DNA of 57,828 nucleotides from a virus (Duplodnaviria > Caudoviricetes), in IMG/VR virus record IMGVR_UViG_3300042355_000871, positions 1 through 57,828 of that record. One strand, given 5' to 3'. Positions within the stretch are counted from its first letter, which is position 1. The number at the start of each line of letters is the position of its first letter. A model generated the notes under the pieces. It did not search any database, was not told the origin of the DNA, and saw only the letters and a program-made list of their open reading frames with translations. Positions 1 to 54,412 of this stretch are shown piece after piece. The translations under genes were made by a program, and so were the position numbers.

Positions 1-843
1 CGGTCGAGCCGAAGGTACTGGCTGGGGAGCTGGGACCGTTGGCTTGACCGACACCGCTTCTGAGGAACCACCGACAGAAGGCTTGATTGCAGTGCCAGCC
101 GACGCTGGGCCGGGCAGCGGCGCCGGCTGGACCGCCTTGCTTGCGATCGGCACGACCGCAGGCTCAGCTTTTGTTAGAACGAGTTCGGGCCGCTCATCGG
201 GGAGCGGGTAGCGTTGCGCCACGGCGAGCACGTCCTTGAATGCAGTCTTGCTCAGAACCCGGTCTGTGCCGACGTTGCCGGGTGGGCGTTCACGCACGAG
301 GCCGATCGCGTCGTCAGCGCAGGCGACGGTCCATGAATAGCCCATCCACAAGCAGGATTCACTGTAGCGGCGTCTCAGCAGGCCCCGCAGCGCTTGCTTA
401 TGCTTGCCGCTTGTTGAGTAGAGCCACGCTCCAAACTGGTCTGCTGCGTCATCGAAGCGATTGGCGTTGACGTGCTTGAGAAGGGTTGAACCGCCGAGGG
501 CGTTGATCCCGCAGTTAAAGGCGAAGCAGACGAGCGCTGAGAACTGGTTTGAGTTGAGCGGGACCGTCACTAAACGCTTGACCGCGGCTTCATACTCAAT
601 GAGCTGATCCGCCAGAAGCGCCCGCGCGCTTGCCTCGTCGCTGAGCCTGTCGGTTGGCAGAACCTCCATGCCGCCGAAAAACTTCGTGCAACCATAGCCA
701 ATGGTCAACATATCGCCAGGGCAGATGTACGGCTCCATTGCCGCACCGCCCGGCGTCAACGGAACGCTACCGTCCTGCGGCCCCCGCTCGTACTCGGTGA
801 GAAGTTCTAGGCCGAACTCGTTCAGCCTTTGATGATCGTTCAT
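1..843 (-). CDS. Endolysin, GH24/T4-lysozyme-like (runs off window start; not in ORF track)
   Basis: Manual translation from ATG 843: MNDHQRLNEFGLELLTEYE...PYICPGDMLTIGYGCT...VPLNSNQFSALVCFAFNCG...STLLKHVN...GLLRRRYSE. GGAG SD upstream. Confidence 0.9.
   Translation of the reverse strand, partial: MNDHQRLNEFGLELLTEYERGPQDGSVPLTPGGAAMEPYICPGDMLTIGYGCTKFFGGMEVLPTDRLSDEASARALLADQLIEYEAAVKRLVTVPLNSNQFSALVCFAFNCGINALGGSTLLKHVNANRFDDAADQFGAWLYSTSGKHKQALRGLLRRRYSESCLWMGYSWTVACADDAIGLVRERPPGNVGTDRVLSKTAFKDVLAVAQRYPLPDERPELVLTKAEPAVVPIASKAVQPAPLPGPASAGTAIKPSVGGSSEAVSVKPTVPAPQPVPSARP
379..479. repeat. 101-bp exact direct repeat with 57728-57828 (circularisation overlap)
   Basis: Base-by-base identity CAGGCCCCGCAG...CGTGCTTGA; first mismatch is g378 vs a57727. 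Confidence 0.95.
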
Positions 844-871
844 TGCGAACAGCTCCCGAAACCCCTAGATT
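843..871 (+). promoter_or_regulatory. Putative sigma70-type promoter for the antisense HNH gene
   Basis: TTGCGA(843-848)-N17-TAGATT(866-871), then a hairpin leader and GGAGG SD before ATG 940. Confidence 0.5.
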
Positions 872-939
872 CGGGACGGTGTGAGGAGCGTTTCAGCCGC
901 TCACTCACACCTAACCGCTGACGCCTTTGTGGAGGCCCC

Positions 940-1623
940 ATGGCTACGTCCCGAGTATGTTCAATTCCTGACTGCGGCAAGCGCCACAAAGCGCGCGGCC
1001 TATGCGGTGCGCACTACGTTCTCTTAAGAAAGTACGGCAGGACGCATACCGTCCTGAAGCGCTACCCGCCAAAATGCCAAGCGCCAGACTGCGATGCTCC
1101 GCATTTTAGCATTGGGTACTGCAAAGCTCACGCTCTCCGAATGAAGAGACACGGAACGCTAGAGTTGAAGAGACGATCCAGCGGAACGGTTAAAGCGTTA
1201 GTAGATGCCGCTCTCGTTGGCCCGATGACCGATGAGTGCATCTTGCTACCCGTAGCCGCTAAAAAGTACGCGAAATTTTTCGATGAGGGGAAGCAAATCT
1301 CAGCGCATAGGTATGTGTGCATTAAAGCGCACGGAGAGCCTACGCCCGACAGAAATTTTGCCGCCCACTCATGCGGACAATCTTGGTGCGTAAACCCACA
1401 ACACATTCGGTGGGCAACGCCGCGCGAAAACACTGATGACAAGTCGGCGCATGGAACGTTGATCGCTGGCGAGCAAAACTACAACGCCAAGTTGAAGGCC
1501 GCTGACGTTATCAAAATTCGAGAAATGCGAGACAAGCCTGCTAAAGAAATCGCTCCACTGTTTGGAGTTCATGCGGCAACAATTCGAGACGTTCTCCGGG
1601 GCAAAACGTGGAAACAGGTTTAG
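940..1623 (+). CDS. Free-standing HNH homing endonuclease (two Cys/His Zn motifs, HNH, C-terminal HTH)
   Basis: CSIPDC...GLCGAHY and CQAPDC...GYCKAH; AHRYVC...AAHSCGQSWCVNPQHIRWATPREN; NAKL...IA..FGV...TIRDV.RGKTW. More AT-rich and antisense to the late operon. Confidence 0.9.
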   Translation: MATSRVCSIPDCGKRHKARGLCGAHYVLLRKYGRTHTVLKRYPPKCQAPDCDAPHFSIGYCKAHALRMKRHGTLELKRRSSGTVKALVDAALVGPMTDECILLPVAAKKYAKFFDEGKQISAHRYVCIKAHGEPTPDRNFAAHSCGQSWCVNPQHIRWATPRENTDDKSAHGTLIAGEQNYNAKLKAADVIKIREMRDKPAKEIAPLFGVHAATIRDVLRGKTWKQV

Positions 1624-3146
1624 TCCGACGATCCAAACGCGACACCGCCACACTCGCCATAAATCTCACCGCGACCATTGAGGCCAATCGTTAACGGGAT
1701 GCGATGCTTTCGTGCATCTTGCGGATCGATTGCCACGTCAATTGCTTGCAAGAGTTCACAGGAAGCGGCGCGGTCATGGTCGCCTGCTAATAGACGAATG
1801 GGCAAGATCGGTTGCCCCGGCTCCCGATTTGTTAAAAAGAATGAGAGCATTTTTTCAGTTGGATAGTTGTGGCCTCTCGGGATGACCACAGAAGCCACGC
1901 CCTCCACTTTGTCGTAGACCTCGACGGCGATCGACCATGACGTGATGTCGGAGATGGTCAGGTCGGACTTCCGGCCTTCAAGCACAGCGGCACGGATTGC
2001 AGCGCCAAGCGCAACCGCCACTTCACAGTCGATGTCGGTCTTGGCTTCCTGCCCGAACACGTCGCGCGCCATCGCCTGCACGGCAGGCATCCGGCTTCCA
2101 CCGCCGACGAGGACCACGTCGTTTAGATCTCGACGAGCGCTGAAATTGGCGTCCTTCCGTGTGGCCTCTGCGATGGCGACGAGGCACGCAGCGCGCATCC
2201 GCTTGAGCAAATCCTGCGAGAGATGTTCGAGCAGCGGACGATCGACAATGTAGTCCATGTGGAGGTCCGTCCCGCCTGGGCTTCGGTCGAAATCCTTGAT
2301 GCGGAACTCCGACTTGACCTTGCGCGAGAGGCGCTTCTTCACGTCCTCTGCTTCCTGAAGAACCAGCGACATCGCCGTGTCATCAACGGCAAGATCCGTT
2401 CCCTCGTGATCCGTCGCCCACTTGTTGACGATGTACCTGCCAAGGATGGCGTCCACATCGCTCCCGCCCGTAATGCTGGAGCCGCCCGTGCCGAGAACCG
2501 TGACGAGGCCAGAGCCTGTCTGGATGATCGACACATCCGTGGTGCCGCCGCCCACATCGAGGACGGCAATGCGACGAACCTTTTTGAAATCGTAGCCATA
2601 TGCGAGCGCTGCTGCGGTCGGCTCGTCCATCAGCTCCACATAGGCAAGGCCAGCCATGCGGCCTGCTTCTTCCACGGCCTTGCGCTGGCTTGGAGAGAAC
2701 GTGGCCGGGACGCAGATCACCGCCGCATCCGGCTTCTCGCCCTTCCACTTTGCCGTCGCCGCATCGAGCAACTTGGCAATGAGCATTGAGCAGATTTCGA
2801 CGGGGCTGTAGGTGTGATTGTCTGGACCCTGATAGTGCAGCGTGCCATCGGGAGCGCCTACCGTCTGGTAGCCCTGATCTTCGTCCGGGTGCCACATTTC
2901 ACCCAGCTTCCGCTTTGCCAGCCTGAAGCAGAAATCGGGGAAACGCTTGCCCGATTCAATGCCGTCAAGGCCGACGAATATCTGGCTTTCTCCCGGCCCT
3001 ACGGCATCGGCAGGGACGATGGTGACGACCGATGGCATGAGCGGTGAGCCATCTACAGAGATGACTTCTGGCACGCGCCCGTTGTACCAGGCGATCGAGC
3101 TGTTGCTCGAACCCAAGTCTAGGCCCACGACTCTAGAGAGTTTCAT
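1620..3146 (-). CDS. Hsp70/DnaK-family ATPase, C-terminally truncated (no helical lid)
   Basis: VGLDLGSSNS, VICVPATF, DEPTAAALAYG, LDVGGGTTDVS, GGSDVD, VVLVGGGSRMPAVQ, AVALGAA; partial beta substrate-binding domain; 508 aa. Confidence 0.93.
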   Translation of the reverse strand: MKLSRVVGLDLGSSNSSIAWYNGRVPEVISVDGSPLMPSVVTIVPADAVGPGESQIFVGLDGIESGKRFPDFCFRLAKRKLGEMWHPDEDQGYQTVGAPDGTLHYQGPDNHTYSPVEICSMLIAKLLDAATAKWKGEKPDAAVICVPATFSPSQRKAVEEAGRMAGLAYVELMDEPTAAALAYGYDFKKVRRIAVLDVGGGTTDVSIIQTGSGLVTVLGTGGSSITGGSDVDAILGRYIVNKWATDHEGTDLAVDDTAMSLVLQEAEDVKKRLSRKVKSEFRIKDFDRSPGGTDLHMDYIVDRPLLEHLSQDLLKRMRAACLVAIAEATRKDANFSARRDLNDVVLVGGGSRMPAVQAMARDVFGQEAKTDIDCEVAVALGAAIRAAVLEGRKSDLTISDITSWSIAVEVYDKVEGVASVVIPRGHNYPTEKMLSFFLTNREPGQPILPIRLLAGDHDRAASCELLQAIDVAIDPQDARKHRIPLTIGLNGRGEIYGECGGVAFGSSD

Positions 3147-4375
3147 TCTGCGGCCACTCCCATTGCGAGGGTGTCAATTGTCGAAGTCGGCCCGATGACA
3201 AGCAGGCGCTCGGTCTTGTCGGCCCGGCGCTGATGTTGAGCCGCCAGCCCGCCCAGACGTGAGCGGCGCTCCTGATCCGTCATCTCGGGGACCGGCTCGA
3301 CCAGAACGATGGGCTCCGGTTCTGGCTCCGGCGTGGTATTCGATACGGGTGTATCGATTACCGTATCGATTACCGTATCGATTGGCTGAGCCTCTACGGG
3401 CGGGGCCGAATAGGCAGCAACCGCAGCGTTTGTCTCAGCGATGATCCGCGCCCGCTCCTGCTGGTGACGCAGCTCCGCCAGTTCATCCGTCCACTCCCGA
3501 TCGCGCTTGGCGTCCGTCGCACTGATGTCGGTGATGAGCGCCCACAGGGACAGGGACCGCGCGCTTTCCAGAACGCACAGCATGATGATCAGCCACAGCC
3601 ACGCCCACCATGCCGCAGTAGCCTTGTCAGCGTTCTCGATCTGTAGGAGCCGCTTGTCAGTGTTGGCCTGCTGTACGGGGCTCGCTTGGCCCGCCATGAG
3701 GCCATCCTCACGGGTCTTGAGAGTGGCAATCTGGCGGCTCAGCTTCTCGGCATACGAGCGCATCGCTTTTTCAGTGAGAACGTCTCTGATCGAGTCGATT
3801 CTGCCGTAGTACTCCCCCCTTGCGACGAGTAGGGTCTGTGCTTGGGCGATGCCCTCAGGCGATTGCGCCGTCATTAATTCGCGCTCGCCTTCCAGCTTGG
3901 CGATTTCCGTCCTGACACGCTCAAGCTCTGCGCCGGTCCCGCCGATGGCTGCTTCCTGCGCCGTCGCCAGTGTTGCCGCTTCCTCGCCGGCAAGCTCAGC
4001 CTCTGCTGCAAGCCTGCTGGATGAGACAGCGAACCGTTCCGGCCAGACGACCTTCGCCCCATTCTCCGCATTGTGTACGCCGATCGCGGCCAAGCCGAGA
4101 AAGATGAAAGAGCCCGCCACTTTGCGCCACATCGTGGATGCCGTGAGCATCCTGATGAACGCCACGGTCGCGAGCAGTTCAGCGCCGAGGACCGCGAAAA
4201 CCAGCGCGATGATTGGCAGCGCAGAAAGCCATGACCAGTGGGCAGTTGCGACGACGCCAGTGACACTCAGCGAGGCGAGGCCAAACGTGATGATGATGAC
4301 GGCCAGCAACGCGCCCTTGCGGGTCGCGTCTGCCTCGTTCTTAAATTCGAGGAAAGTGTCCAGAAACTTGCCCAT
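3143..4375 (-). CDS. Multi-pass membrane protein with coiled coil and possible degenerate peptidoglycan-binding motif
   Basis: Three N-terminal hydrophobic segments, coiled coil, AQAQTLLVARGEYYGRIDSIRDVLTEKAMRSY, fourth TM, Pro-rich tail. ATGA overlap with Hsp70. Confidence 0.75.
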   Translation of the reverse strand: MGKFLDTFLEFKNEADATRKGALLAVIIITFGLASLSVTGVVATAHWSWLSALPIIALVFAVLGAELLATVAFIRMLTASTMWRKVAGSFIFLGLAAIGVHNAENGAKVVWPERFAVSSSRLAAEAELAGEEAATLATAQEAAIGGTGAELERVRTEIAKLEGERELMTAQSPEGIAQAQTLLVARGEYYGRIDSIRDVLTEKAMRSYAEKLSRQIATLKTREDGLMAGQASPVQQANTDKRLLQIENADKATAAWWAWLWLIIMLCVLESARSLSLWALITDISATDAKRDREWTDELAELRHQQERARIIAETNAAVAAYSAPPVEAQPIDTVIDTVIDTPVSNTTPEPEPEPIVLVEPVPEMTDQERRSRLGGLAAQHQRRADKTERLLVIGPTSTIDTLAMGVAAE

Positions 4376-4394
4376 GCCCTGCCCCTGTGTTGCG

Positions 4395-4823
4395 CTAAGC
4401 GCGTTCTGTGATCCAGAAGATCAGCAGCGCGCTCAGGATGGTCAGCGCGAAGCCGACCACGTAGCGGATGAACTCCTGCCGCGTGCGCTTGCTTTCCTCG
4501 GCAGCGCGCTCGTGCTGGTGCAGAAGCATCATCTCGACACGGCTGATTATGGCCGCTGACTGCGCATCGTTTGCCGTTTTCACCAAGTCAGAAACGCCGT
4601 TCATTGCGTCACGCAATGCCATCTCCCATTCACGCTTCAACTCTTTCAGGTCTTCGCCCGAAACCGATCGCTCAAGCTCTTTGAGGAACGTGTCGAACGC
4701 CGCCTCGAACCGCGTTCTCAAAACCGCCAGATCGCGCTCGGCGTTGCCAATGCGATCAAGGCGCGCAAATGCATCGCGCTGCCGCTCGATCTCTGCGATC
4801 TCGCGGTGAAATATCTCGGTCAT
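4395..4823 (-). CDS. Coiled-coil protein with C-terminal membrane anchor
   Basis: Charged heptad-like helix followed by YVVGFALTILSALLIFWI. Confidence 0.7.
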   Translation of the reverse strand: MTEIFHREIAEIERQRDAFARLDRIGNAERDLAVLRTRFEAAFDTFLKELERSVSGEDLKELKREWEMALRDAMNGVSDLVKTANDAQSAAIISRVEMMLLHQHERAAEESKRTRQEFIRYVVGFALTILSALLIFWITERA

Positions 4824-4846
4824 TGCCCGCCCCGTAGCTCAGTCCC

Positions 4847-5563
4847 TCAATCACCGCGTCGCGTCAGCAGCCCAAGCAGACGGTCGATCGATGCCTCTCG
4901 CGGATTAGCCTGATCCGTCAGCATGTGCTCACGACGCAGCCGCGCCTTCTCAACGTTCAGTTGCTCACTCAAGTGACGCTGGCGTGTCGCTGACAGAACC
5001 TGGATGACCGCCACTGCTTCCGCCTCGTCCTGCTCGAAAGCATCGAGAAGCATGTCGCCGGTCACGTCATCATAGCCCTCACCGACAGGCCCATAGTCCG
5101 ACATGAGCGCATCAGGCGCGGGAAGGAGCGGGGCCTCTGAGAACGCCGACCTGTCCCGTGCTTTCAGTTCTGCAAGCTCTGCACGGAGGGCTGCGAGTTC
5201 AGCGTCGCGTGGGTCTGGCGCTGCCTCGATTGCGACAGGTTCAGGCTCGGCTATCTTACCACTGTTGTAAGATACGGGCTCTGGCTCAGGCTCGACAACC
5301 GGCGCGGGAGTTTCGACCGGAACAGCGCTCGCGCTCTCCAGAAACGCAATGACTTCCTCTGCTGTACGGCAGGCGATGGAGCATGTGCGCCCTGATGGAG
5401 TTGTGCCGGCTGCACTAAAGAAAGCTCCATGCCATTCCACGAACGGGCGCGGCTGAAAGTTCGCCATCGACGGCGTCCAATCACGCTCCCAGAACAGCGC
5501 GCACATCTCGTTGGCCAGCCGCTCCATCGCGGTTGGTTCTGCCGTCTTGCGTTCGGGTTTCAT
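4847..5563 (-). CDS. Hypothetical acidic protein
   Basis: 238-aa ORF abutting the upstream stop (TAA ATG); phage-like gene packing. Confidence 0.65.
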   Translation of the reverse strand: MKPERKTAEPTAMERLANEMCALFWERDWTPSMANFQPRPFVEWHGAFFSAAGTTPSGRTCSIACRTAEEVIAFLESASAVPVETPAPVVEPEPEPVSYNSGKIAEPEPVAIEAAPDPRDAELAALRAELAELKARDRSAFSEAPLLPAPDALMSDYGPVGEGYDDVTGDMLLDAFEQDEAEAVAVIQVLSATRQRHLSEQLNVEKARLRREHMLTDQANPREASIDRLLGLLTRRGD

Positions 5564-5881
5564 TTACGCGGCTTCCTCGTCGAACGGCAGAGGCTTGATC
5601 TCTTCATCGTGCCACGCATCGATCTGCGCCTTGAGCGCGTCGATGTTGACCGCCGTGCCGATGAGGACGACCATCTGCTCCTTGGTGAGAGACGCGAATG
5701 GCGTGAAGTTGTCAGGGTCCGCTGCACCCAGTGCGGTCTCGCCGCCGATCACGAAGGACTTCTCGTTCGGTGCTGTCCCGCGTGTGCCGGTGAGCTGATA
5801 GCCGATGGACTTGACCACATCGGTCAGCCCGTCCTCGTCAGCGACTTTGGCGGTGTGGAATTTCCATGCCCATGTGGTCAT
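5564..5881 (-). CDS. Putative tail fibre assembly/accessory protein
   Basis: Directly downstream of the fibre gene; AGGAG SD; DPDNFTPFASLTKEQMV motif as in fibre-adjacent small proteins. Confidence 0.6.
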   Translation of the reverse strand: MTTWAWKFHTAKVADEDGLTDVVKSIGYQLTGTRGTAPNEKSFVIGGETALGAADPDNFTPFASLTKEQMVVLIGTAVNIDALKAQIDAWHDEEIKPLPFDEEAA

Positions 5882-5912: not shown

Positions 5913-8174
5913 TTAGGTTGCAGTCGTGACAGCGGTCCAACCTGTTGATCCGTTGGTGTTCACGTACATCCGCGTCGATGTGCTCGACCCGTCCGAACGC
6001 ATGTAGAGCGAGCCCTGCGCCGCGCTGAGCGTTGGCGCACCTGAACCGAAGAACACGCCAAAGTTCGCCGTGCTGCTGACCATGATGCCCGCGCCTGCGG
6101 TGCCGCCTGCGGGGATGGCTGTGGCGGACATGGCCGTTATAGAAGGCGTGCCAGCGATTGCAGATGCCGACACGGTAAAAACCGCCGAGTTGCTGACACG
6201 CATTGCGAACTGGTTCGCCGTGCGGTTGTATTCAATGTAATCGTTGCTATCGTAAACGAGATAGCCAACGCCCGCGCTTAGCTGAATATTGAGATTGGCG
6301 TCACCAAACGCCACTGTTCCAGAGAATGTCGGGCTCCCCGCCACCGTCCCGCTCAGCGTCGGAGACGAGATGGTCTTGTTGGTGAGCGTGTCAGTGCTGG
6401 AAATGGTGGGGATGGCAACGCCGCCGAAGGTCAGCGCGGTCCCCGACAACGCGATTGTGCCAACGGTCCCGCCTGAGCGCGAAATAGATATTGCGGTCTG
6501 CGAAAACACATCCGCGTCTGTCCGCGTCTGCAATCCGAACGCGCCGCCATCGTTGATGAAAGACCAGCGCTTGGCGTCTGACCCGGCATTCGTCTCATAG
6601 AAGTCAAGGCGTGGCTCGGTTGTGCTGATTGTAATTGATGTCGTGCCGGTGAAGGTCACGTCGCCCGAAAAAGTTGGCGTCCCCGCCACCGTCCCGCTCA
6701 GCGTCGGGCTGGTGAGGGTCTTGTTCGTAAGCGTCGATGTGCTGGAAATGGTGGGGACGGCTACGCCGCCAGAAGTCGGTGCGACAGTAAAATCCATCAC
6801 TCGGCTTGAGTTGACGGTAAAAACAGAGCCAACAGCGATGTTATCGTAGAGGAAGAAATTTTGAGCGTCGTCAGAGCCGATTGATCGACCAAAGCTATAA
6901 GCGAGCCCCGCAGCCGCCGTGTGAACCGAGATTACTGACTGCGTCGCCCCACGCACGACCGGGGAAGCGGTGAACGTCCAGTTGCCGCTTGCTGTCGGGC
7001 TACCCGCGACCGTCCCTGACAGCGTCGGGCTGGAGAGGGTCTTGTTCGTGAGGGTGTCGGTGGAGGAGATGGTGGGGATGGCGACGCCGCCCAGCGTTGC
7101 TCCGCCACCATTCGGGTTGAGGTTGATTGCGACGTTGGTGGCGTAACTGGTCCAGTCTCGCGCCTGCATCCAGACCTGCCCGGTCGCGTTGCTGGTGCCA
7201 ACGTCAAGACCATAACCCGCTGAACCAACGTTAGAAGCGCCGACGCGCAGGATGATGTCAGTGAGAGAGCTTCCGCTTGCTGCGGGTGACGCTCCGGTTG
7301 AGACTTGCGTGATGCGCTGATGTCCGCCAGCAAATGTGTAGCTTCCACTCAGCGTCGGGCTACCCGCGACCGTCCCTGACAGCGTCGGAGACGAGAGGGT
7401 TTTGTTGGTGAGGGTGTCGGTGGAGCTTCGGCTCACAATTGGAGAGCCCGCAAGGTTTACAGTTGCAGAGTCGAAAAACCATACGTTAGAATTGTAGTCG
7501 TATCCAAATTCGTCGGACGTTGAGTACGAGCCACTGTCATACGGGACGAATGCGAATGCCGTTCCAGCGCCCTGAAAATAAGCGCCCATCTGGTTGTTTG
7601 TTACAGTTGAGTTGGCGATATGGAGCGCAACGCCGCCAGACGCAACGCTAGAGCCGATATTCACTTGCTGCTGAAGTGTCTGAATGCCGCTCCACGTCGC
7701 CGCCCCCGCCACAGTCCCGCTCAGCGTCGGGGAGCTGATTGCCGGTGATGTGAGCGTCTTGTTCGTCAGCGTCTGCGAGCCCGTCAGCGTCACGTAATCC
7801 GTGAGCGTCGAGAACCCCAGCGTCGTGCGCTGAGCCGCAGCATCCGCATCATCCAGAAGCGCCCTGCCCGCCGCCGTCGATGTGACCAGCGAGAACGTAT
7901 CCGCAGCCGTCGAGTACATCATCGAACCGGCAGCAGAGAAATCCAGCGCCGCTATCGCCGTGATGGTCGCGTCAGTTGCAGAGACGCCGAGCGCTGTTCT
8001 CGCCCCCGATGCTGTGGTGGCGCCGGTTCCGCCTGCCGAGATGGGTCGGGCCGCATTCAAATCTGTGACCAGGTCATCACAAAAGGTGTTGTAGGAGCTA
8101 GATGAAACCGGGGTGCCAGTGACGGCAGTTGTTCCACCTGGCTTGCTGTAAACGCCGCTGCCGTCTCGACTCAA
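5913..8174 (-). CDS. Tail fibre protein with five TLTNKTL-SPTLSGTVAG repeats
   Basis: Probable TTG start at 8174 after GGAGG; N-terminal SRDGSGVYS anchor; S/T/G-rich; C-terminal GSGAPT...GSLYMRSDG...MYVN..G.TGW. Confidence 0.85.
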   Translation of the reverse strand: MSRDGSGVYSKPGGTTAVTGTPVSSSSYNTFCDDLVTDLNAARPISAGGTGATTASGARTALGVSATDATITAIAALDFSAAGSMMYSTAADTFSLVTSTAAGRALLDDADAAAQRTTLGFSTLTDYVTLTGSQTLTNKTLTSPAISSPTLSGTVAGAATWSGIQTLQQQVNIGSSVASGGVALHIANSTVTNNQMGAYFQGAGTAFAFVPYDSGSYSTSDEFGYDYNSNVWFFDSATVNLAGSPIVSRSSTDTLTNKTLSSPTLSGTVAGSPTLSGSYTFAGGHQRITQVSTGASPAASGSSLTDIILRVGASNVGSAGYGLDVGTSNATGQVWMQARDWTSYATNVAINLNPNGGGATLGGVAIPTISSTDTLTNKTLSSPTLSGTVAGSPTASGNWTFTASPVVRGATQSVISVHTAAAGLAYSFGRSIGSDDAQNFFLYDNIAVGSVFTVNSSRVMDFTVAPTSGGVAVPTISSTSTLTNKTLTSPTLSGTVAGTPTFSGDVTFTGTTSITISTTEPRLDFYETNAGSDAKRWSFINDGGAFGLQTRTDADVFSQTAISISRSGGTVGTIALSGTALTFGGVAIPTISSTDTLTNKTISSPTLSGTVAGSPTFSGTVAFGDANLNIQLSAGVGYLVYDSNDYIEYNRTANQFAMRVSNSAVFTVSASAIAGTPSITAMSATAIPAGGTAGAGIMVSSTANFGVFFGSGAPTLSAAQGSLYMRSDGSSTSTRMYVNTNGSTGWTAVTTAT

Positions 8175-8276
8175 GAGAGCCTCCATAGTTGCAGGAAGTC
8201 GTTCGCGCCTCGGATGAGGGCGGCTGTTAATCTTTATGAACGGTGGTAAGGTCTGCGCCCGGTTAGGAGACGCAGG

Positions 8277-8450
8277 ATGGTTGCTCTAGGCGCGATGCTG
8301 TTGGCGTTCGCTGCGATTGTTGGTGCAGGTTTCAGCCTGTTTGCGGGAGGCGCATGGGGCTGGGTCGCCCTCGCGCTGTTCCTGGCGTCTATGGTTTTGG
8401 AGGGCGTTGGTTTCGCCTTGGCCGGGATGGAGGAAGCGGCGGAGGAGTAG
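8277..8450 (+). CDS. Small two-TM membrane protein, antisense (not in ORF track)
   Basis: AGGAG SD, ATG 8277; MVALGAMLLAFAAIVGAGFSLFAGGAWGWVALALFLASMVLEGVGFALAGMEEAAEE*, 57 aa. Confidence 0.55.
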   Translation: MVALGAMLLAFAAIVGAGFSLFAGGAWGWVALALFLASMVLEGVGFALAGMEEAAEE

Positions 8451-11400
8451 TCGGCTTTTTCCGCGGCGACAGCTTTGGAGGCGGCTTCTTCTGGTTGGCG
8501 AAATAGTCGCGCAGGATTGCAAGTTCTTCCTCTGCCTTCGGGACGTTCGCGCGCTTGCTTGCATACTTCGACGTCATGACGCCGATGCCGGTTCCGATAC
8601 CAGCGCCGATGCCAAGCATCATGAGCCCCTTGGCCTGAGCATACTGGTCTTCAAGCTCCTGCACGCGAGCGTAGTTTTCTTCGCTCTTATCGTTCTTGAG
8701 ATTTTCGTAAGCTGTATTCAGCTTTTCCTTGATCATCTCTGCGTTCTGGCCGGCAAGCACTGCCTCGGTCACCGCGCTGCCGCCAATAAGTGCATCCATC
8801 GCCCCGACTTTGCGGCCAATGAACTTGTCAGGGAACAGACCAGATGGAGGCATTACGTCCTTGAGCGGGCGGGCAATCCACGTACCGTCACGCCTCGTCT
8901 CAAAGGGAACCTTGGTCTTCGATCCGCCACGCTGCCAGAACTCGTTGACGTTGGTTGCGCGCTTCCTGATCTCGGCCCGATCCTGCACAGTTTTCGGAGG
9001 AGATATCGGCGCGTTGTTCAGCAGCGCATCGGCCTTCTTGATGGCGTTCTTTGCTGTGAACTTGGAGACGGTCGTTCCGCCAACGCGGAACAGCTTCGCA
9101 CCAGTGGCGCCGGCGATACCACCAAGCAACGGAGCGTAGTCACGGAAGGCCAGTTGCTCGTCAGTCGGTCGCGTGCGCTCAAAAGCAGCGTCTGCCTTAA
9201 GCTTGTCGCGCTCGCCTTCCAGCGTGGCAAGACGCTCGCGAGCCGTCTTCAGGCTTGCGTTGAGTTCGTCCTTGCGGCCACGAATAGCCGCCTTGGTGAT
9301 GTCGCCAAGCGTGCCATCAATGCCAGTCGGGCCAAGGTCGAAGCCTTCGCTGTCAAGCTGCGCCTGGATTTCCTTGTTCGTGCCGTCCGAGAAAATCTTG
9401 AGCGCGCCTTCAAAGTCTGCGATCTGTCCAAGCTCACGTTCAATGAGCATGTCATTGTCGGCAATCTTCTGAGCCGTCTCAGGCGTCTGAGGGACAGCCT
9501 CTCCAGCCATCCCGCCTGCGATAGCGCCGATCGCTCCACCGGCCACGGTACGGCCAATGCCAGATGTGGGGGAACGCCCCATAACTCCCTGCGGCTTGGG
9601 GCTTGAAGCAGAAAGGCGGGTTCCGCCGCCGACACCGAACATGCCTGCCTGTTCAGGGCGCCTGCGCGTTACCGGGACGGCAGTTGTGGGTGGACCTTTG
9701 ACTGGAGCACGCCCGCTTTTGAGGGCGGGTTTAGGCTTTGTGTCGCGACGGTTAACCTTCTCAAGGAAGGCCGCATGTCCGTCTTCTACTTTTTGGGCGA
9801 GGGCTTGGAACTGCTTCCGCGCATCGGCGAGACTATCACGACGGGCTCGAGCGGTATCCCAAGCTTTTCGAGCTGCGCCCGAGTAGCCAGCCGGTGCCGA
9901 TCTTCTGGCAAGATCTCGCTGTGCTGTACTTTTGGATATCCCGGCTGCTTTGGCGAAGTCATCGGTGATCCTTTCAGAAATGGCCTCAATTCGGCCAGCG
10001 TAGTCACCGCCCTCAGTATAGACCGATTTGTAATCGTGCGTGAAGATTGTGGGTGAGCCGTACTTATCCGCCCCAATAGCCCCGTTGAAGGCAGCGTCCA
10101 GTTGCTTCAGGGAGATGCCGCGCGGCATCTCTCCGTCGAAGTTAGGGTTAATGTCGAACTGGTAGCCGTTCGGGTAGCGGTTGTAGCTGAACGTGTGGCC
10201 CTCGGCATTCAGGGCCTTTGACAATGCGCGAAGGTCGGCAGGGCTCATGCGCTCGACCGTTGGCACGAACATTGACAGGCCGCGAATATAGCCCTCGCGA
10301 ACGGCCTCGCCAGCGTCTGCGCCAACCGCAAGCACTTGCGACACAGCCATTGCGGCCTGGCGAAGATCCTCGCCCGCGACAGCGTTGAAGTCCGCGATTT
10401 CGCTGTCCGTCAATCCTTTTAGCGGGATACGAATGTTAGGCGACAGATCGCCCTCAAACGAACCGCCAACGTCGAGCGGGTTTTCCTGCGTCGGGTGGTC
10501 GATGCGCGTGATGTCTTCGGTCTTGTTCATGCGACCAGTAATGGCCTTGGTCAGTTTCTCCCACGGCTGATCTCCTCTAGCGCTCTCGTAGAGCCCGCTT
10601 AGAATCGGCTTCAAATACTCCCGCTGGGTGAGTTCATCGCCCTCCGCCACAGCGCGGTCAAAGCGCTCACGCGCGGCCTTCCCGACCGGCGTGAGCTTCG
10701 TGCCAAACTCAATCGTGGCCTTGGGCGCTGCCCGCCACGGCCCTGCTGTGCGACGCAAGGCATCAGCAAAACCTGGATGCATTAGCGCTTCACGAGTGAT
10801 CTTTTGACCATCAATGCCGGGGATACCGGCGTTGTTCAGCTTGTTGATGATCCCGTCCCAAACCTGATGGTAGGCGTCTCCGGTGGCTGCACCGCTGGTT
10901 TGCGAGCGGAGGTGAACCCACGCCGGCGCCTGAAAGTTCCAGCTCTGAAGATTAAACGGCGGAGCATTCGCCATTTGCGGGTTTGCCGCCTTCATTGCCT
11001 CGGTGATCTGGCCGCTGTGGCGCTCGTTGTACAGGTCGCGCAGCTTGTTGAAATAGATCGCCATCGGCTCGTGAAGCGACTGGTTCGACGACATGACGGT
11101 GTCGTCGATGCCGAACATCTTGCCGACCCACACGTCGTTGACGCTGATCGGGAACCTTGTCGGAACGCCGCCGGTCAGGGCGAGCGTGTCCGAGAAGTGT
11201 CCTGTCTTGTTGCCCGGTAGAGCAGACGTTCCGAGGTCTTTGCGCGTAAGGGCCTGACTGACGGCTGATGGTTGCGTCAGATCAACATCGATAGGCTTGC
11301 CCTGCATGTTGCGCGAGATGGCCGCGAGCGTGCGCTCAAGATTCTCGTCTGGTTTTGCGCGAGCCGACGTGGCACCGACAACGTCCATCGAGTGAATAAA

Positions 11401-14400
11401 CTCTTTGGCCGTGAGGTCGGGGAGATTGTTCCCGAATGCCTCGCCCGATAGTTCGTACCAGAGCATGTCGCGATACGGCAGGCGCATCGCAGCATCCCAC
11501 TGCTCGGCAGGGAATGTCGGCACAACGCCATGCTTGCTTGCCGCATTCTTTGCGGCCTGCGAACTGGCCTCGACCGACTGGCGCCACAGATCCGCCAGTT
11601 CGTCGTCCGTGACATCGAAGCCGGGGCCCTTCGCCGCAAGAAACTCTGGCGAGAGGTCTGTCCAGTTTCCGCCGCCCGGAGCGCCAGGCGTATACGTGCC
11701 GCCAACAACTCGCTCGGCTTCTGGCACGATGACATTCAAGCGCTCCGCTGTGGCGGCGCCGCTGACGCGCGTATCTGCGCGGGCAGCGGCAATTGCCGCC
11801 TGAGTTGGGGTCGGCAGAGATGGTGCTATTGGTTTGCCGCGCTGAATGATTTCAGACAGCGGCCTGTTTCCCGGCTCATACTTTGCTCCCTGCGGAGCTT
11901 TGGGACGGCCTGCAATCGATCCCTGATCCGCCCCACGCACCGGAGGCGGCTTGACGCGCCCAGCACCACGCATGGAGTTGGCGAGGCGAGGACCGTACTT
12001 CCCACCGAGAGCCAGACCCATGCCGCCTAGCGCGCCAGCCTGCGGATCTTCCTGGTTGGCGAACGAGCCGCCGACTGAGCCGAAGCCAGCTAGGGCTACA
12101 TCCTGCTTGAGATTGTCGGCGATGCCGCTTGCGCGAGGCCCACTCACACCAGCTAGAAGCTTGGAGCTTTGTGTTTCGGAGGGGTCGAACTTGGCGAACT
12201 TGCCTCGGATGTTGGAGGGGTCGAAGATAATAAAGCTATCGCCGTCGCCTTCATGGGCATTTCGATAAACAATACTGTCGTAGCCCTTGTCTTGAATGGC
12301 CTTCTTGATGTCGCCCGCAGTAATATCCCACGCTGGTTTGTTGATTTCAATTGGATCTGGCAAGGTCGCTAGCTGATAGCGGAGAGAACCAACCGACCAG
12401 TTGCCGGGGTCTTGAAGGCGGAGCGGATTGCGAGCGCGAGCATACACAGGAAGAACGGCTGCGCCTTCGTGAAACTCTTCGCCAAGTCGTTTAGCTACGC
12501 CAGTAGTTTTGACGATGTTATTCGCCTGCGCTACATTTCCGAGATGGACCCCAAGGGGCTCATCACCTGATCGCGACAGGTTCGCGTTGAACTCATCGAA
12601 ATCTGCGCGCGTCCCATGATACAGCGGCGTATCGACATCAAACCCCTGCTCTCTCGCTCTCTGCATTCGAGAGGGCTCATCCATAGGAAGGGACTTCCCT
12701 CCGAAGCCGTTCTGCGCGGGACGATTGGCGTTGGCTTCTTTGATCTTGCTGACGAGCGTGTTGATGCCAACGCGCTTGCCGTCCAAGAGGAAGACCTTCC
12801 TGTCCTCGCCCTGAACGCCATTGCGCCGGCTCACCTCAAACTGGACCGATACTTTGCCAGCGGCGGTGTCCAGCGTGTCCGTCTCATTCAGGCGCCCAAG
12901 CTGATCAATCTCTGCTTGGGCTGGATCGGCGCGACGACCTCCGAAGCCCATCCTCACTGGCGGTGGCCTTGAAGCGCCAGAAGCGGGAGGCGGGGTCATG
13001 GGCGTGGAGCCCCTCGCGAGACGGTTGCCGAGAACGCCGCCGCCGATGCCGCCGATGCCTGCGCCAAACAGCGCGTTCATGAGCTGCTGGTTCTCGTCCT
13101 CCGCAGGAGCCATCGCCCCAAGGACGCCGCCAGCGACGATGCCAGTGCCGGTCGCAGACGCCGACGATGTCGTGCCGGGCGGGTTGCCTCTGGGGCCGCG
13201 CGTGCGCCCCGGAGACGGAGGCGGTGCAGCAGCCGCAGCAGGTTGAGCGGGAGGGATCAGGCCCTTCTCAGCCATGCGCGCTTCAACGCGGCGGATGACC
13301 TCATTCAGATTGCCCTCGGTCATCGGCTTGCCAATGAGCGGGATCAGCGCGCGGTTCACTTCCTCATCGTAGACGCCAGGATAGCGGAGACGCTGGTAGA
13401 TGTCCTTCGCCGTGCGTGCGATCGGCTTGACCGCCACATCGTTCACAAGGCCCGGCAGTGAGAACTGATTGCCAGAGGTTTCGACACGGTCCAGAACGCG
13501 CGTGATGGCGTCCTCGCCTTCCATGCCAGCGTCACGGATTGCCGCCTGACGCATGGCGGTGTCAGACCCACCCGCAACGCGACGGCCCCACTCACGGTTT
13601 GCGCCGAGCCTGCGGATAGTCTCCTCGAACGTGTCAGCAGCCTTCTGGCTACCAAGCGCCGTCGCCATGTTCTTGAGCGCCTTGTCCTTCAGGAGCTTCG
13701 TCAGCGCGCTCTGGTTGTTGGTCTCGATCATATCCTCGATGTTGCGGGCAACACCCATCGCAAGGGCTTCGACCTCGCCCGCAGTCCAAGGCGATCCGTT
13801 GCGGCCTTTGGACATGTCGCGCCGAAGTTCCCACGTTTTCTGGTTCAGCGCCTTAGTGCCGACCTCGAAGGCATCTTCCAGCCGTTTGACATCCTCAAAC
13901 ACACCAAGCGCGTTGCCATACTCTCCGCCAGTGGCCTGGCTGACGCTGTCGGCAAAGTTGCGCTTCGTGCCGCCAACAATGCGGGCCGTGTCCGAACCGA
14001 ATCCGGCGTCCGCGATGACATCGTCAAAGGCGCGCTTCGTGTAGTCCAGCGCCATCGTGGTCGGAATGGCTGTGCCGCGAACGGGATCGGCCATGTAGTC
14101 GTCGATCGATTTGACCGCGTCCCTAGCGCGGTTCCACTCCATCATTGACCGTTCATCAGCCCCGCGCGCCGCACGCGCCTGAAGATCAGCCGCTACTGAA
14201 GCGAGGTTGTTGCGAGCAGACTGGAGAGCCTTCTGCCCGCTCGGCGTGTTCAGAACCGGGACGATTTCGTTGGCGAAGACACGCGGATCGACAGGGGTGG
14301 CATAGGCATTGTCATAGGCTGGGGCCGCTTCAGTGCGGAGACGGGTTTCCAGCTCGTCCAGCGTGGCAACGGCGTTGTCTGCCTTCTGGCCCGTCGCGCG

Positions 14401-15948
14401 TGTTGCGCCGCGAGTAATGCGGGGAGACAGCTTGTCAGCGTTCTGGTTCACAACGCCAATCAGCGCCTCTTGCAGCGGCCCCGGAGCAGCGCCGCCGGCC
14501 ATCTGGAGGCCACGCAGGTTCGCGCCTGACGAGTTGTCCGTCATCGCCGCAAGTTCGCCGGATGTCTCGTAGACGCCGCTGTCGCCACGACGGGCAAGCC
14601 TCGCCTGGACTTTGCGGATGTCTTCTACCGTCACGCCGTCCGCTTCCATCTTCTTCATGAAGATGTCGTCGGCGCGCTGTTCTGCACGGGAGCGGGCTGG
14701 AACGGGCTGCGGTGCGCTTGCCGTGACCACTGGTGCGTTTGGCGGTGTCGGGGGCACAGGCTGGGCCGCGACGGTTTGCGGCTGTGTGGGGGCTTGCTGT
14801 GCGGTTTGCGTTGCAGCAACGGCAGAAGCCACGGGAGGCATCTGCCGGGATGGTTGGCGCAGGTTAACGCCACCAGCATTGGTAGGCGTTGTGGGAGCAT
14901 CAAGCGCCTTAAGGGCGCGCGGGACGGCGCGAGCAGCTTCAATGCTAACGTAATTGAGCGGGTCAGCAGCGCCCTGCGTACCGGCCATGTTTCGGTCAGA
15001 CCCCGCAGGCGCTGCGCCTGCGCTCATTCCGTAGGCCAGAGCCGCGTTCTCACCAGTCTCAACGCCAACGCCACGAAGCGTGCGCGACATCCCCGGAACG
15101 GTCGCTAAACTCTCGCTGAGTGCTTTACCCCCTTTGAGGATCGGCGCTCCAAATCCGGTAAACACGGATGCAAGATTGCCCGTAACATCAGCAGCCATTT
15201 CGCCCGGTGTAGTGGCAGCGGGTATCGGAAGGCTGGGGAGAATATCGCCAACGGCCTGCTGGTTCTGGACGTAGCCGCCCTGCTGCGCAGCATCTGCGAC
15301 ACGCTGCGTGATATCGCCGTATTCGCCGCCAGCAAGCGCGCCCTGCATCGACGGGTCAAAACCAGCACCATAGGCATTGGCAGTGCTGAGGCCCAATTGG
15401 CCGAGCGTGTTGGCAACGCCAATGTTGGAGTTAACGAACGCACCAGTAGCGCGGCCCGCAAATCGATCCGGTCGCTCCTGGTTCAGTTCAAGCGGTCCAT
15501 CTGGCCCCGTGTTCTTGAACGGGATCGGGGATGCCGCGTTCATCAGCGCAAGTTCTTCGTTGTACTTGTTGACGCGCTGCGCTTCATCACGCTCTGGCTG
15601 CGTTGCCCTGATCTGTGCGGGCGACATGACGGGACCGCGAACAGGCGGGGGCTTCATCCGCGTCGGCTGGCCTGATGTCAGCGTGCGAGCGTCAGGACGC
15701 AGCGGGGACAGCATCGGATCGGTCTTGGGCTTGCGAGCGTACATGTCATCGAACGCCTGACCGTCGCCCCACGGCGTTGCGTCGGGCTGGGACATGGGCG
15801 CCGGTTTTGCGATTGCCGCGGCAGGCTGAACAAGGCCGCGCTTCATCGCCTCTTCGTATGCCGCCTTCTTGTCGGGCGGAAGCAGGCCGCGCTTGTAGGC
15901 TTCCGCCAGCGCATCGGCCTTGCTAATCGAGGTATTTTCCGGAACCAT
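8389..15948 (-). CDS. Giant (2519 aa) internal virion/ejection polyvalent protein with ART-like, HhH-glycosylase-like and PG-binding domains
   Basis: Last of three ejection-position genes. LYHGT...GVHLG...LPVYAR.RNPL...GYDSIVY...FIIFDPSNIRGKFAKFDP; LWYE...ATSAR...GNKTGHF...SVNDVWV; EIQAQLDSEGFDLGPTGIDGTLGDITKAAI. Confidence 0.85.
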   Translation of the reverse strand: MVPENTSISKADALAEAYKRGLLPPDKKAAYEEAMKRGLVQPAAAIAKPAPMSQPDATPWGDGQAFDDMYARKPKTDPMLSPLRPDARTLTSGQPTRMKPPPVRGPVMSPAQIRATQPERDEAQRVNKYNEELALMNAASPIPFKNTGPDGPLELNQERPDRFAGRATGAFVNSNIGVANTLGQLGLSTANAYGAGFDPSMQGALAGGEYGDITQRVADAAQQGGYVQNQQAVGDILPSLPIPAATTPGEMAADVTGNLASVFTGFGAPILKGGKALSESLATVPGMSRTLRGVGVETGENAALAYGMSAGAAPAGSDRNMAGTQGAADPLNYVSIEAARAVPRALKALDAPTTPTNAGGVNLRQPSRQMPPVASAVAATQTAQQAPTQPQTVAAQPVPPTPPNAPVVTASAPQPVPARSRAEQRADDIFMKKMEADGVTVEDIRKVQARLARRGDSGVYETSGELAAMTDNSSGANLRGLQMAGGAAPGPLQEALIGVVNQNADKLSPRITRGATRATGQKADNAVATLDELETRLRTEAAPAYDNAYATPVDPRVFANEIVPVLNTPSGQKALQSARNNLASVAADLQARAARGADERSMMEWNRARDAVKSIDDYMADPVRGTAIPTTMALDYTKRAFDDVIADAGFGSDTARIVGGTKRNFADSVSQATGGEYGNALGVFEDVKRLEDAFEVGTKALNQKTWELRRDMSKGRNGSPWTAGEVEALAMGVARNIEDMIETNNQSALTKLLKDKALKNMATALGSQKAADTFEETIRRLGANREWGRRVAGGSDTAMRQAAIRDAGMEGEDAITRVLDRVETSGNQFSLPGLVNDVAVKPIARTAKDIYQRLRYPGVYDEEVNRALIPLIGKPMTEGNLNEVIRRVEARMAEKGLIPPAQPAAAAAPPPSPGRTRGPRGNPPGTTSSASATGTGIVAGGVLGAMAPAEDENQQLMNALFGAGIGGIGGGVLGNRLARGSTPMTPPPASGASRPPPVRMGFGGRRADPAQAEIDQLGRLNETDTLDTAAGKVSVQFEVSRRNGVQGEDRKVFLLDGKRVGINTLVSKIKEANANRPAQNGFGGKSLPMDEPSRMQRAREQGFDVDTPLYHGTRADFDEFNANLSRSGDEPLGVHLGNVAQANNIVKTTGVAKRLGEEFHEGAAVLPVYARARNPLRLQDPGNWSVGSLRYQLATLPDPIEINKPAWDITAGDIKKAIQDKGYDSIVYRNAHEGDGDSFIIFDPSNIRGKFAKFDPSETQSSKLLAGVSGPRASGIADNLKQDVALAGFGSVGGSFANQEDPQAGALGGMGLALGGKYGPRLANSMRGAGRVKPPPVRGADQGSIAGRPKAPQGAKYEPGNRPLSEIIQRGKPIAPSLPTPTQAAIAAARADTRVSGAATAERLNVIVPEAERVVGGTYTPGAPGGGNWTDLSPEFLAAKGPGFDVTDDELADLWRQSVEASSQAAKNAASKHGVVPTFPAEQWDAAMRLPYRDMLWYELSGEAFGNNLPDLTAKEFIHSMDVVGATSARAKPDENLERTLAAISRNMQGKPIDVDLTQPSAVSQALTRKDLGTSALPGNKTGHFSDTLALTGGVPTRFPISVNDVWVGKMFGIDDTVMSSNQSLHEPMAIYFNKLRDLYNERHSGQITEAMKAANPQMANAPPFNLQSWNFQAPAWVHLRSQTSGAATGDAYHQVWDGIINKLNNAGIPGIDGQKITREALMHPGFADALRRTAGPWRAAPKATIEFGTKLTPVGKAARERFDRAVAEGDELTQREYLKPILSGLYESARGDQPWEKLTKAITGRMNKTEDITRIDHPTQENPLDVGGSFEGDLSPNIRIPLKGLTDSEIADFNAVAGEDLRQAAMAVSQVLAVGADAGEAVREGYIRGLSMFVPTVERMSPADLRALSKALNAEGHTFSYNRYPNGYQFDINPNFDGEMPRGISLKQLDAAFNGAIGADKYGSPTIFTHDYKSVYTEGGDYAGRIEAISERITDDFAKAAGISKSTAQRDLARRSAPAGYSGAARKAWDTARARRDSLADARKQFQALAQKVEDGHAAFLEKVNRRDTKPKPALKSGRAPVKGPPTTAVPVTRRRPEQAGMFGVGGGTRLSASSPKPQGVMGRSPTSGIGRTVAGGAIGAIAGGMAGEAVPQTPETAQKIADNDMLIERELGQIADFEGALKIFSDGTNKEIQAQLDSEGFDLGPTGIDGTLGDITKAAIRGRKDELNASLKTARERLATLEGERDKLKADAAFERTRPTDEQLAFRDYAPLLGGIAGATGAKLFRVGGTTVSKFTAKNAIKKADALLNNAPISPPKTVQDRAEIRKRATNVNEFWQRGGSKTKVPFETRRDGTWIARPLKDVMPPSGLFPDKFIGRKVGAMDALIGGSAVTEAVLAGQNAEMIKEKLNTAYENLKNDKSEENYARVQELEDQYAQAKGLMMLGIGAGIGTGIGVMTSKYASKRANVPKAEEELAILRDYFANQKKPPPKLSPRKKPTTPPPLPPSRPRRNQRPPKP

Positions 15949-54404: not shown

Positions 54405-54412
54405 GGCCGGGC

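Follow-up and report, generated by a model that had tools for sequence, protein, structure and literature searches.

Why does a tailed phage encode an Hsp70 of its own, and why does the gene sit beside genes for membrane proteins and close to the endolysin? We addressed this question in IMGVR_UViG_3300042355_000871, an IMG/VR virus record (Duplodnaviria; Caudoviricetes) whose whole length of 57,828 bp was analyzed and is referred to here as the window. A first-pass annotation of this DNA, made from the sequence alone, had described a lid-less Hsp70 coupled to genes for a four-transmembrane (four-TM) protein (p410) and a coiled-coil protein (p142), and had proposed a dedicated envelope-associated ATPase module rather than a captured general chaperone. 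All the elements that it listed are present, at the coordinates it gave, in the open reading frame (ORF) list and in Pfam and PHROG searches, and their arrangement is far beyond what chance would produce. We found that the Hsp70 belongs to a separate clade, is under purifying selection and retains its linkage to the membrane genes, all of which favors the module over the captured chaperone. We describe a specialized Hsp70 lineage that has no lid and whose functional setting, the phage lysis cassette, is new. A full-text literature search, with supplements outside its reach, found no description of an Hsp70 in such a cassette; among the papers listed, PMC13721041 and PMC6090650 mention Hsp70 and, once or a few times each, terms of lysis.

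The Hsp70 and its clade

The protein scores 279.7 bits on the Pfam HSP70 profile (PF00012), for which the cut-off is 20.6, with an E-value of 5.1e-83 over profile positions 1-475 of 599. Since the match stops at position 475, the Hsp70 lid is absent, as the first-pass annotation had said. When aligned with Escherichia coli DnaK, the phage protein terminates near DnaK residue ~497-500, ahead of the helical lid, and DnaK and mortalin chains from the PDB align with it from residue 4 to ~486-497. No alpha-helical lid was found, and the listed family members are all 490-525 aa long. On the other hand, the "partial" substrate domain of the earlier description has to be revised, as the beta substrate domain, aligned to DnaK ~393-500, appears nearly complete with only the lid gone.

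The residues equivalent to DnaK D8, K70, E171, D194, T199 and D201, which we take to be the catalytic ones, are present in the window Hsp70 and invariant in 36 family sequences, so that both the profile match and the ATPase positions bear out the annotated actin-like ATPase domain with Hsp70 signatures. Within the substrate-binding domain (SBD), the residue aligned with DnaK Q433 hardly varies, being the same in at least 90% of 36 family sequences. The arginine equivalent to DnaK R167, presumably a J-domain contact, is a glutamate in the window Hsp70 and is missing in most family members. The changed motifs reported earlier, DLGSSNS, GGGTTD and the linker D-LTIS-D, can all be read in the protein, with LTIS standing in place of DnaK VLLL in the alignment. 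However, DLGSSNS and GGGTTD are not traits of the family, since they are confined to the near relatives of this phage; in more distant members the motifs take their canonical forms, GTTNS and GGGTFD. Identity to DnaK sequences is ~31%, and the protein misses the DnaK equivalog cut-offs (NF001413, 284.4 vs 648 bits; TIGR02350, 275.6 vs 822.55 bits) as well as those of the HscA models (240 bits vs 620-708). In agreement with the annotation, neither a J domain (PF00226) nor GrpE (PF01025) was found anywhere in the 57.8-kb record at E <= 0.1, in searches that did detect their targets in 12 and 14 of 14 control genomes.

A protein search returned 81 family clusters of ~490-525 aa (plus fragments) at identities from 92% down to 38%, followed by an identity gap and then by ordinary DnaKs of >600 aa at <=35%. 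To the phylogeny that the annotation had suggested we contributed a quick maximum-likelihood tree of 52 rows, comprising on the family side the window, 20 of the 81 family proteins and 4 read from loci, and on the other side 19 of 39 DnaK-like hits, 5 full-length DnaKs from viral contigs, and E. coli DnaK, HscA and HscC. The 25 family rows make up one side of a branch with a Shimodaira-Hasegawa approximate likelihood ratio test (SH-aLRT) value of 99, and the DnaK rows fall outside. HscA and HscC lie on the DnaK side, the exact placement of HscC being unsure because of its long branch. On this tree, a quick search in which the family contig L038 also has a long branch, the lid-less Hsp70s are a clade separate from DnaK, HscA and HscC. 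The clade was seen only on phage-sized contigs, the longest of which are ~75 kb or less. Compared with eight relatives, the window Hsp70 gave ratios of nonsynonymous to synonymous change (dN/dS) of 0.08-0.17, which indicates purifying selection; by domain, the values were 0.07-0.11 for the nucleotide-binding domain (NBD) and 0.15-0.21 for the SBD. With intact ATPase positions and purifying selection, the Hsp70 looks functional.

Among the phages in INPHARED, a tblastn search with the Hsp70 gave 44 records, mostly megaphages or host-DNA-like records, all at <60% identity; the 40 listed rows were at 27-45%, and those spanning at least 80% of the query at 28-32%. No cultured phage carrying the lid-less clade was found in this search, and P0079, P0054 and P0067, three distant members of the family, gave no matches when scanned against viral contigs. 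Selecting IMG/VR loci by generic Hsp70 motifs yielded 80 (see L027-L093), most with a full-length DnaK of ~600-650 aa and some on contigs of 100-370 kb. Within the window Hsp70, the SBD (window 1620-1970) is mosaic: the NBD shares 96-99% identity with those of the closest relatives (dS 0.2-0.6) and the SBD 62-71% (dS 1.3-1.6), and a close match to this SBD turned up in none of the relatives.

Linkage of the Hsp70 to p410 and the endolysin

On the minus strand, the genes run in the order tail fiber, DUF7936 gene, p238, p142, p410 and Hsp70, and then, past an HNH gene on the plus strand, the endolysin at the contig edge (Table 1). The letters ATGA, read directly in the sequence, contain both the stop of p410 and the start of the Hsp70, and p410 has four predicted TM helices, both as annotated. 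All 12 close viral contigs retain the order p142-p410-Hsp70, with p238 ahead of the module in 11 (the twelfth begins inside p142) and the endolysin after the Hsp70 in 11 (the twelfth ends inside Hsp70). A wider set comprised 20 family contigs, some of them near-identical (L003/L004; L009/L010/L011). Every one has a p410-like ORF with several TMs running up to the start of the Hsp70; the two genes share 4 nt in 19 contigs and are 7 nt apart in L014. All 18 contigs that extend beyond the Hsp70 have a lysozyme ORF next, which adjoins the Hsp70 directly in 16 and comes after an HNH gene in 2. Gene order holds at Hsp70 identities of 31-40% and p410 identities of ~21-31% (L026, L038, L094 and L095); the neighborhood comparison that the annotation had called for thus shows the Hsp70-membrane gene linkage kept to ~31-40% identity.

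The other members of the module are retained to different depths. In L026, the gene upstream of the Hsp70 is undetectable by tblastn and has the same architecture as p410, namely three TMs and a coiled coil ahead of a fourth TM, then an acidic Pro-rich linker and a basic C-terminal tail. The hydrophobic extreme C-terminus of p142, also found in its homologues, agrees with its annotation as a tail-anchored coiled-coil protein; a homologue is present in L094 (42% identity) and an analogue of like architecture in L026. The C-terminal half of p238 is conserved with the module in close relatives (tblastn synteny), while p238 was not detected in the most distant loci.

We also approached the linkage from the endolysin. 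An endolysin-profile search returned 31 loci, 24 of which carry the Hsp70 (eight contigs new to the set); p410 is present in 23 of these, and the 24th begins inside Hsp70. One locus starts at the endolysin and is uninformative, and the six without Hsp70 are the weakest matches, to the catalytic domain only. The Hsp70 is therefore present in 24/24 informative close relatives, and no extended endolysin without the module occurs among the 31 loci. A scan for module-less relatives by way of the C-terminus of a 2519-aa protein encoded in the window gave no matches.

Since the HNH gene at the Hsp70-endolysin junction is missing from most relatives (16 of the 18 related contigs reading past Hsp70), we regard it as an insertion that stands outside the module. 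HNH genes interrupt the Hsp70-endolysin junction in the window and also in L008 and L023, and the p410-Hsp70 junction in L118. A contig from run X3 joins window position 842 to 1759 without the HNH gene, the shorter side being 26 letters, which is a weak hint of an HNH-less variant in the same habitat. Judged by its linkage, the p142-p410-Hsp70 cluster belongs to the lysis cassette. The annotation had placed it between tail fiber and endolysin; these flanks are right, but the cluster is part of the endolysin's own cassette, into which the HNH gene has been inserted. A gene nested among host dnaK, under relaxed selection and with no conserved linkage to the membrane genes, would have spoken for another origin. 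What we found is an Hsp70 outside DnaK, purifying selection and conserved linkage to the membrane gene.

p410 has a coiled coil and half a PG_binding_1-like element between TM3 and TM4, and a Pro/Glu-rich linker after TM4. Its C-terminal tail is conserved in the alignment as basic residues followed by a hydrophobic core, which we take to be the kind of segment that DnaK prefers. The AlphaFold2 (AF2) model is all-helical, with a predicted local distance difference test score (pLDDT) of 70.9, and had no match in the PDB by Foldseek at E <= 0.001. The top weak rows, ClyA-type alpha-pore-forming toxins (E 0.02-0.1, TM-score <= 0.26), were put down to generic long helical bundles and left unused. 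Searches of the ESM Atlas with p410 and p142 returned unnamed viral clusters only, and neither protein matched a DUF2730, holin or antiholin family (Pfam at E <= 0.01, and PHROG). The peptidoglycan-binding-like motif annotated in p410 stays below the Pfam threshold, with PG_binding_1 (PF01471) reaching 13.7 bits (E 0.071) in p410 and 16.3 bits (E 0.011) in a 31%-identical homologue, against a cut-off of 23 and over profile positions 3-37 of 57. On the other hand, p410 profile positions ~169-210 pick up tandem PG_binding_1 proteins, and 10/10 of those tested are such arrays. An exhaustive p410 profile search retrieved 123 representatives only (E <= 0.001). Because of the PG_binding_1-like element and the charges around the helices, we infer that p410 is N-in and C-in, with the wall-binding loop in the periplasm and the C-terminal region in the cytoplasm.

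The annotation had also suggested a multimer prediction of the Hsp70 with p410. Run with p410 residues 277-410, this gave a score of 0.47 (best of three controls 0.00), passing a mark that is reached by 58/80 solved complexes and 2/110 mismatched pairs, in a range (<=0.60) that holds only 7/80 solved complexes and both of the mismatched pairs that passed. Contact agreement between runs was at least 39%, and the partner pLDDT at least 41. The prediction used custom alignments, and solved Hsp70-peptide complexes exist, so the pass may be memory. It lends weak in silico support to binding of the Hsp70 to the p410 tail.

In L112 (3242-5989) and L118, the p410 body is 68-74% identical to that of the window, and the p410 tail and the Hsp70 (~40%) belong to another lineage; a recombination break appears to lie within the p410 Pro-rich linker. 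The tail type goes with the Hsp70 lineage in both contigs. Because the two adjoin in the DNA, this match is not evidence of binding.

Full-length related endolysins are 368-501 aa long and are laid out as a GH24 domain, a conserved mini-domain of ~50 residues, a disordered Pro/Ala linker of ~90-130 residues, a weak helix, a TM helix and a basic tail. The weakly hydrophobic helix is rich in Gly/Ala/Ser/Thr and precedes the strongly hydrophobic one (315-328 and 345-372 are the helices in the AF2 model of the L002 endolysin). By hydropathy, 15/15 complete endolysins have a C-terminal TM and none has an N-terminal signal, and in 19/20 the tail beyond the TM is positively charged, at +1 to +5 net. 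The lysozyme family PF00959 was matched by the endolysins of L002, L026 and L094 (E 3.4e-32, 1.8e-17 and 5.4e-21). In the window, 57071-57826 encodes the end of the lysozyme domain, the Pro/Ala linker, the weakly hydrophobic helix, the TM helix and the basic tail, and its final 75 aa match the L002 endolysin at 100% identity. Among the relatives, the C-terminal membrane domain comes in at least three unrelated-looking types (compare the 3' ends of L002 and L003; window 57071-57300), which are swapped between phages that are 95-98% identical in lysozyme domain and Hsp70 NBD.

A possible chaperone-assisted step in lysis

With an Hsp70 kept beside a membrane protein and an endolysin, what might the module do? 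The reading we favor, tentatively and at somewhat less than an even chance, is that the Hsp70 is the ATPase of a private, membrane-docked chaperone/lysis-accessory module made up of p142, p410, Hsp70 and the anchored endolysin. It starts from the gene order, the overlaps, the protein architectures, the separate clade and the purifying selection, all of which are observed. Its physical interactions, its client and the topology of the lysozyme domain are inferred. The endolysin's membrane determinants lie only at the extreme C-terminus and therefore leave the ribosome after translation ends, which implies post-translational handling. In the proposed sequence, the cytoplasmic lid-less Hsp70 would capture the finished endolysin, and perhaps also tail-anchored p142, hold the endolysin soluble and non-native, and deliver it to the inner membrane at p410. 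There, p410 would be fixed to the cell wall through its periplasmic PG_binding_1-like element and would offer its cytoplasmic basic-hydrophobic tail as the Hsp70 dock. The C-terminal helix or helices, together with the basic tail, would anchor the endolysin, the linker of ~90-130 residues giving it wall reach, and the spanins and the small two-TM protein would finish lysis. The lysozyme domain could either stay on the cytoplasmic face or be passed to the periplasm, as the long Pro/Ala linker fits both.

This reading draws on two lines of published work. In E. coli, host DnaK is described as aiding the biogenesis of tail-anchored proteins (PMC6794478, PMC3426401), and for endolysins with C-terminal transmembrane domains (TMDs), the route of the catalytic domain to the wall is stated to be unknown in passages of PMC8943055 and PMC7143992. 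Since DnaK serves tail-anchored proteins and the route of C-terminal-TMD endolysins is unexplained, a private chaperone is a reasonable proposal. A chaperone-like protein, Ms6 Gp1, is credited with helping endolysin delivery (as cited in PMC7143992).

Several points weigh against it. The SBD is the most divergent, mosaic part of the Hsp70, and it neither tracks nor co-varies with the endolysin membrane cassette: in L002 and L003 the NBDs are almost identical and the SBDs are each 71% identical to that of the window, yet their endolysin C-termini are 100% and 24% identical to it. Nor does the SBD co-vary with the p410 tail (tail 98% identical, SBD 71%), and the Hsp70-p410 complex prediction is a weak one. 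According to the accounts in PMC7143992 and PMC8943055, M4Lys and Enc34 ORF39 are toxic or lytic alone in E. coli, with no phage Hsp70. In principle, then, a C-terminal-TMD endolysin can do without a private chaperone. The host's own DnaK could do this job, and with a candidate holin present, a canonical lysis route is possible. Finally, the R167 equivalent is mostly lost and no J protein is encoded, both of which are difficulties for the triggering of ATP hydrolysis; use of host J-domain and nucleotide-exchange factors by the phage Hsp70 is possible.

The same linkage evidence would suit a lysis timer or release regulator, in which Hsp70, p142 and p410 hold the endolysin or a hole-forming protein inactive while ATP lasts, or release the endolysin. 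Lysis would then be coupled to the energy state of the cell, in what would be an ATP-powered equivalent of antiholins or the Mu "releasin". The endolysin cytoplasmic tails are strongly basic, p142 is a membrane-tethered coiled-coil protein and the Hsp70 is by all appearances an ATPase with intact catalytic positions; in Mu, basic cytoplasmic residues of the endolysin are described as making its release depend on membrane-tethered gp25 (PMC9239132). However, neither p142 nor p410 shows homology to DUF2730, holin or antiholin families, a separate holin-like ORF is present and the data do not separate holding from delivery. We consider the timer rather unlikely, if the strongest of the competitors. 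More improbable is a Sec- and Tat-independent export route with p410, held to the peptidoglycan by its periplasmic PG_binding_1-like element, as conduit or gate in the inner membrane, through which the Hsp70, docked on the p410 tail, would feed the unfolded lysozyme domain, N-terminus-out, while the C-terminal anchor holds the endolysin and the Pro/Ala linker lets it reach the wall. If true, an ATP-dependent chaperone step would set lysis timing, and the membrane crossing of C-terminally anchored endolysins would be explained for one lineage.

The module could also merely adjoin the lysis genes and act elsewhere in the envelope, in superinfection exclusion, in defense or counter-defense, or in wall remodeling during lysogeny. 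An integrase is encoded, so the phage may be temperate, the module has membrane and peptidoglycan-binding-like proteins, and PADLOC gave one weak match of the Hsp70 ATPase core to PDC-M61B (E 7.2e-7, 26 bits). That match, however, spans the generic actin-like fold only, and the module stays on the endolysin strand with stop/start overlaps across lineages down to 31% identity, while the extended endolysin was never seen without it; we consider such a function about as improbable as the export route. The least likely case is a chaperone of general use, taken from a host and serving in the folding of large virion proteins (for instance the 2519-aa protein), with an incidental genome position. Very large structural proteins are indeed encoded nearby, many viral contigs carry full-length DnaK genes, and the Hsp70 fold and ATPase positions are intact, but the clade is separate from DnaK, HscA and HscC, the lid is missing in all members, the gene has the same place, between p410 and the endolysin, in all the contigs examined and J-domain and GrpE genes are absent from the record, which makes a captured chaperone very unlikely. 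Of the roles that the annotation had offered, lysis is thus the one favored by context; nothing was found in favor of ejection-protein folding, exclusion or an anti-defense decoy.

Should the private chaperone/lysis-accessory module hold, it would matter in several ways. Known phage lysis parts are holins, endolysins, spanins and a few regulators, and an ATP-driven Hsp70 would be a new class. An endolysin that always comes with a chaperone and a wall-binding membrane partner offers a testable candidate for the C-terminal-anchor crossing problem as posed in PMC8943055. A natural lid-less clade with no J protein and a single neighborhood is a compact model of Hsp70 specialization and membrane recruitment. 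The arrangement, kept in distant relatives, points to an undescribed chaperone-assisted step in host bursting.

The surrounding genome and known systems

The record is a whole IMG/VR virus, classed there as linear, with a CheckV completeness of 92%. Its ends (1-479 and 57357-57828) overlap imperfectly, at ~90% nucleotide identity, within the endolysin gene. Since window 208-479 matches 57557-57828 at 90.5% nucleotide identity and contigs from two other runs extend ~980 nt past position 1, the record is best read as a permuted circle, broken inside a polymorphic endolysin gene. The assembly break in this circular or permuted genome was probably caused by two alleles of that gene. DNA runs with the stretch are of lake water metagenome (24 listed runs from 24 studies); four lake-water runs contain at least half of the sampled words, and one of the four may be the source. 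No RNA run containing the stretch was among those listed.

Table 1. Features of the window around the Hsp70 and the lysis genes
Feature	Coordinates	Strand	Basis
Tail-fiber gene	5913-8186	-	phrog tail fiber
DUF7936 gene	5564-5881	-	
p238, acidic soluble protein, 238 aa	4847-5563	-	no Pfam/PHROG family
p142, coiled coil and extreme C-terminal TM (tail-anchored), 142 aa	4395-4823	-	sequence; phrog_6701 (unknown function) E 1.2e-5
p410, predicted four-TM inner-membrane protein, 410 aa	3143-4375	-	no Pfam/PHROG family; all-helical AF2 model
Lid-less Hsp70, 508 aa	1620-3146	-	Pfam HSP70 E 5.1e-83
HNH homing-endonuclease gene	940-1623	+	phrog_59 E 1e-18; Pfam HNH_3 24.4 vs cut-off 24.8 bits
Endolysin, N-terminal 281 residues (GH24 domain, mini-domain and first part of the Pro/Ala linker), runs off the contig	1-843	-	Phage_lysozyme E 1.8e-32
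Endolysin, C-terminal part, second allele overlapping the N-terminal part	57071-57826	-	translation
i-spanin-like protein (N-terminal TM and coiled coil)	56766-57074	-	architecture; start overlaps endolysin stop
o-spanin lipoprotein, signal peptide and lipobox	56591-56899	-	phrog_1275 Rz-like spanin E 3.4e-6; overlaps i-spanin 3' end
Candidate holin, 93 aa, two hydrophobic segments	56332-56613	-	architecture alone

In the window as in L026, the endolysin gene is followed by spanin genes and an ORF with two TMs, and i-spanin-like homologues lie downstream of the endolysin in other relatives as well. A two-component spanin pair is recognized in the window, the o-spanin by phrog_1275 and the i-spanin by architecture and overlap alone; in family searches, neither the i-spanin-like protein nor the 93-aa ORF had a match. 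Window 54401-56028 (+) encodes a tyrosine integrase (PF00589, E 5e-13) and, after it, a protein of 184 aa with an N-terminus like that of the integrase, which suggests a temperate lifestyle. No prophage or host relative was found in genome_contigs (species-representative genomes) scanned with the p410 profile and with the Hsp70. On the minus strand, the window further encodes the 2519-aa protein, with no family assigned (8389-15948), a 1030-aa protein with a terminal Peptidase_S74 chaperone domain (17850-20942) and a 458-aa protein with an MptE-like domain (25052-26428).

The phage Hsp70 resembles bacterial DnaK in fold, in domain order through the beta substrate domain and in its conserved ATPase positions. 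It differs in having no lid, an LTIS linker, Glu at R167, a clade of its own and a score of 284 against a DnaK cut-off of 648 bits, and also in having no encoded J or GrpE partner and in adjoining a membrane protein and an endolysin. Mycobacteriophage Ms6 Gp1 is a small protein that is not known to be an ATPase or a relative of Hsp70. The likeness is in its role as a chaperone-like helper within a lysis cassette, serving LysA delivery (as cited in PMC7143992). E. coli HscC, paired with DjlC, is also a specialized Hsp70 beside a tail-anchored membrane partner (by annotation; DjlC is given as tail-anchored in PMC6794478). HscC, however, is not nearest on the tree and has C-terminal sequence past the beta domain, and the phage partners have no J domain and sit in a phage lysis cassette.

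The endolysin itself resembles M4Lys of Salmonella phage BSPM4, Enc34 ORF39 of a Hafnia phage and the enzymes of Chi-like phages, which are described as having an N-terminal catalytic domain, a linker, one or two C-terminal TMs and a basic end (PMC7143992, PMC8943055). The window endolysin is set apart, as far as the descriptions go, by a GH24 Phage_lysozyme domain where Enc34 has the PHA02564 type, and its linker is much longer. In the available text of PMC7143992 and PMC8943055, no Hsp70 or p410-like gene is described for the M4Lys and Enc34 cassettes. The Mu gp25 "releasin" (DUF2730) is presented in PMC9239132 as a membrane-tethered cytoplasmic accessory that controls an anchored endolysin via basic residues. 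Unlike the endolysin here, that of Mu is anchored N-terminally by a signal-arrest-release (SAR) sequence, and the Mu system has no ATPase, while p142 and p410 have no DUF2730 match. The mitochondrial TIM23 motor sits on the side that the chain moves toward, whereas the phage Hsp70 would be cytoplasmic, and no homology between the partners is known. The parallel lies in the way mitochondrial Hsp70 is docked on TIM23 by Tim44, as an Hsp70 recruited to a membrane protein's tail to handle a polypeptide.

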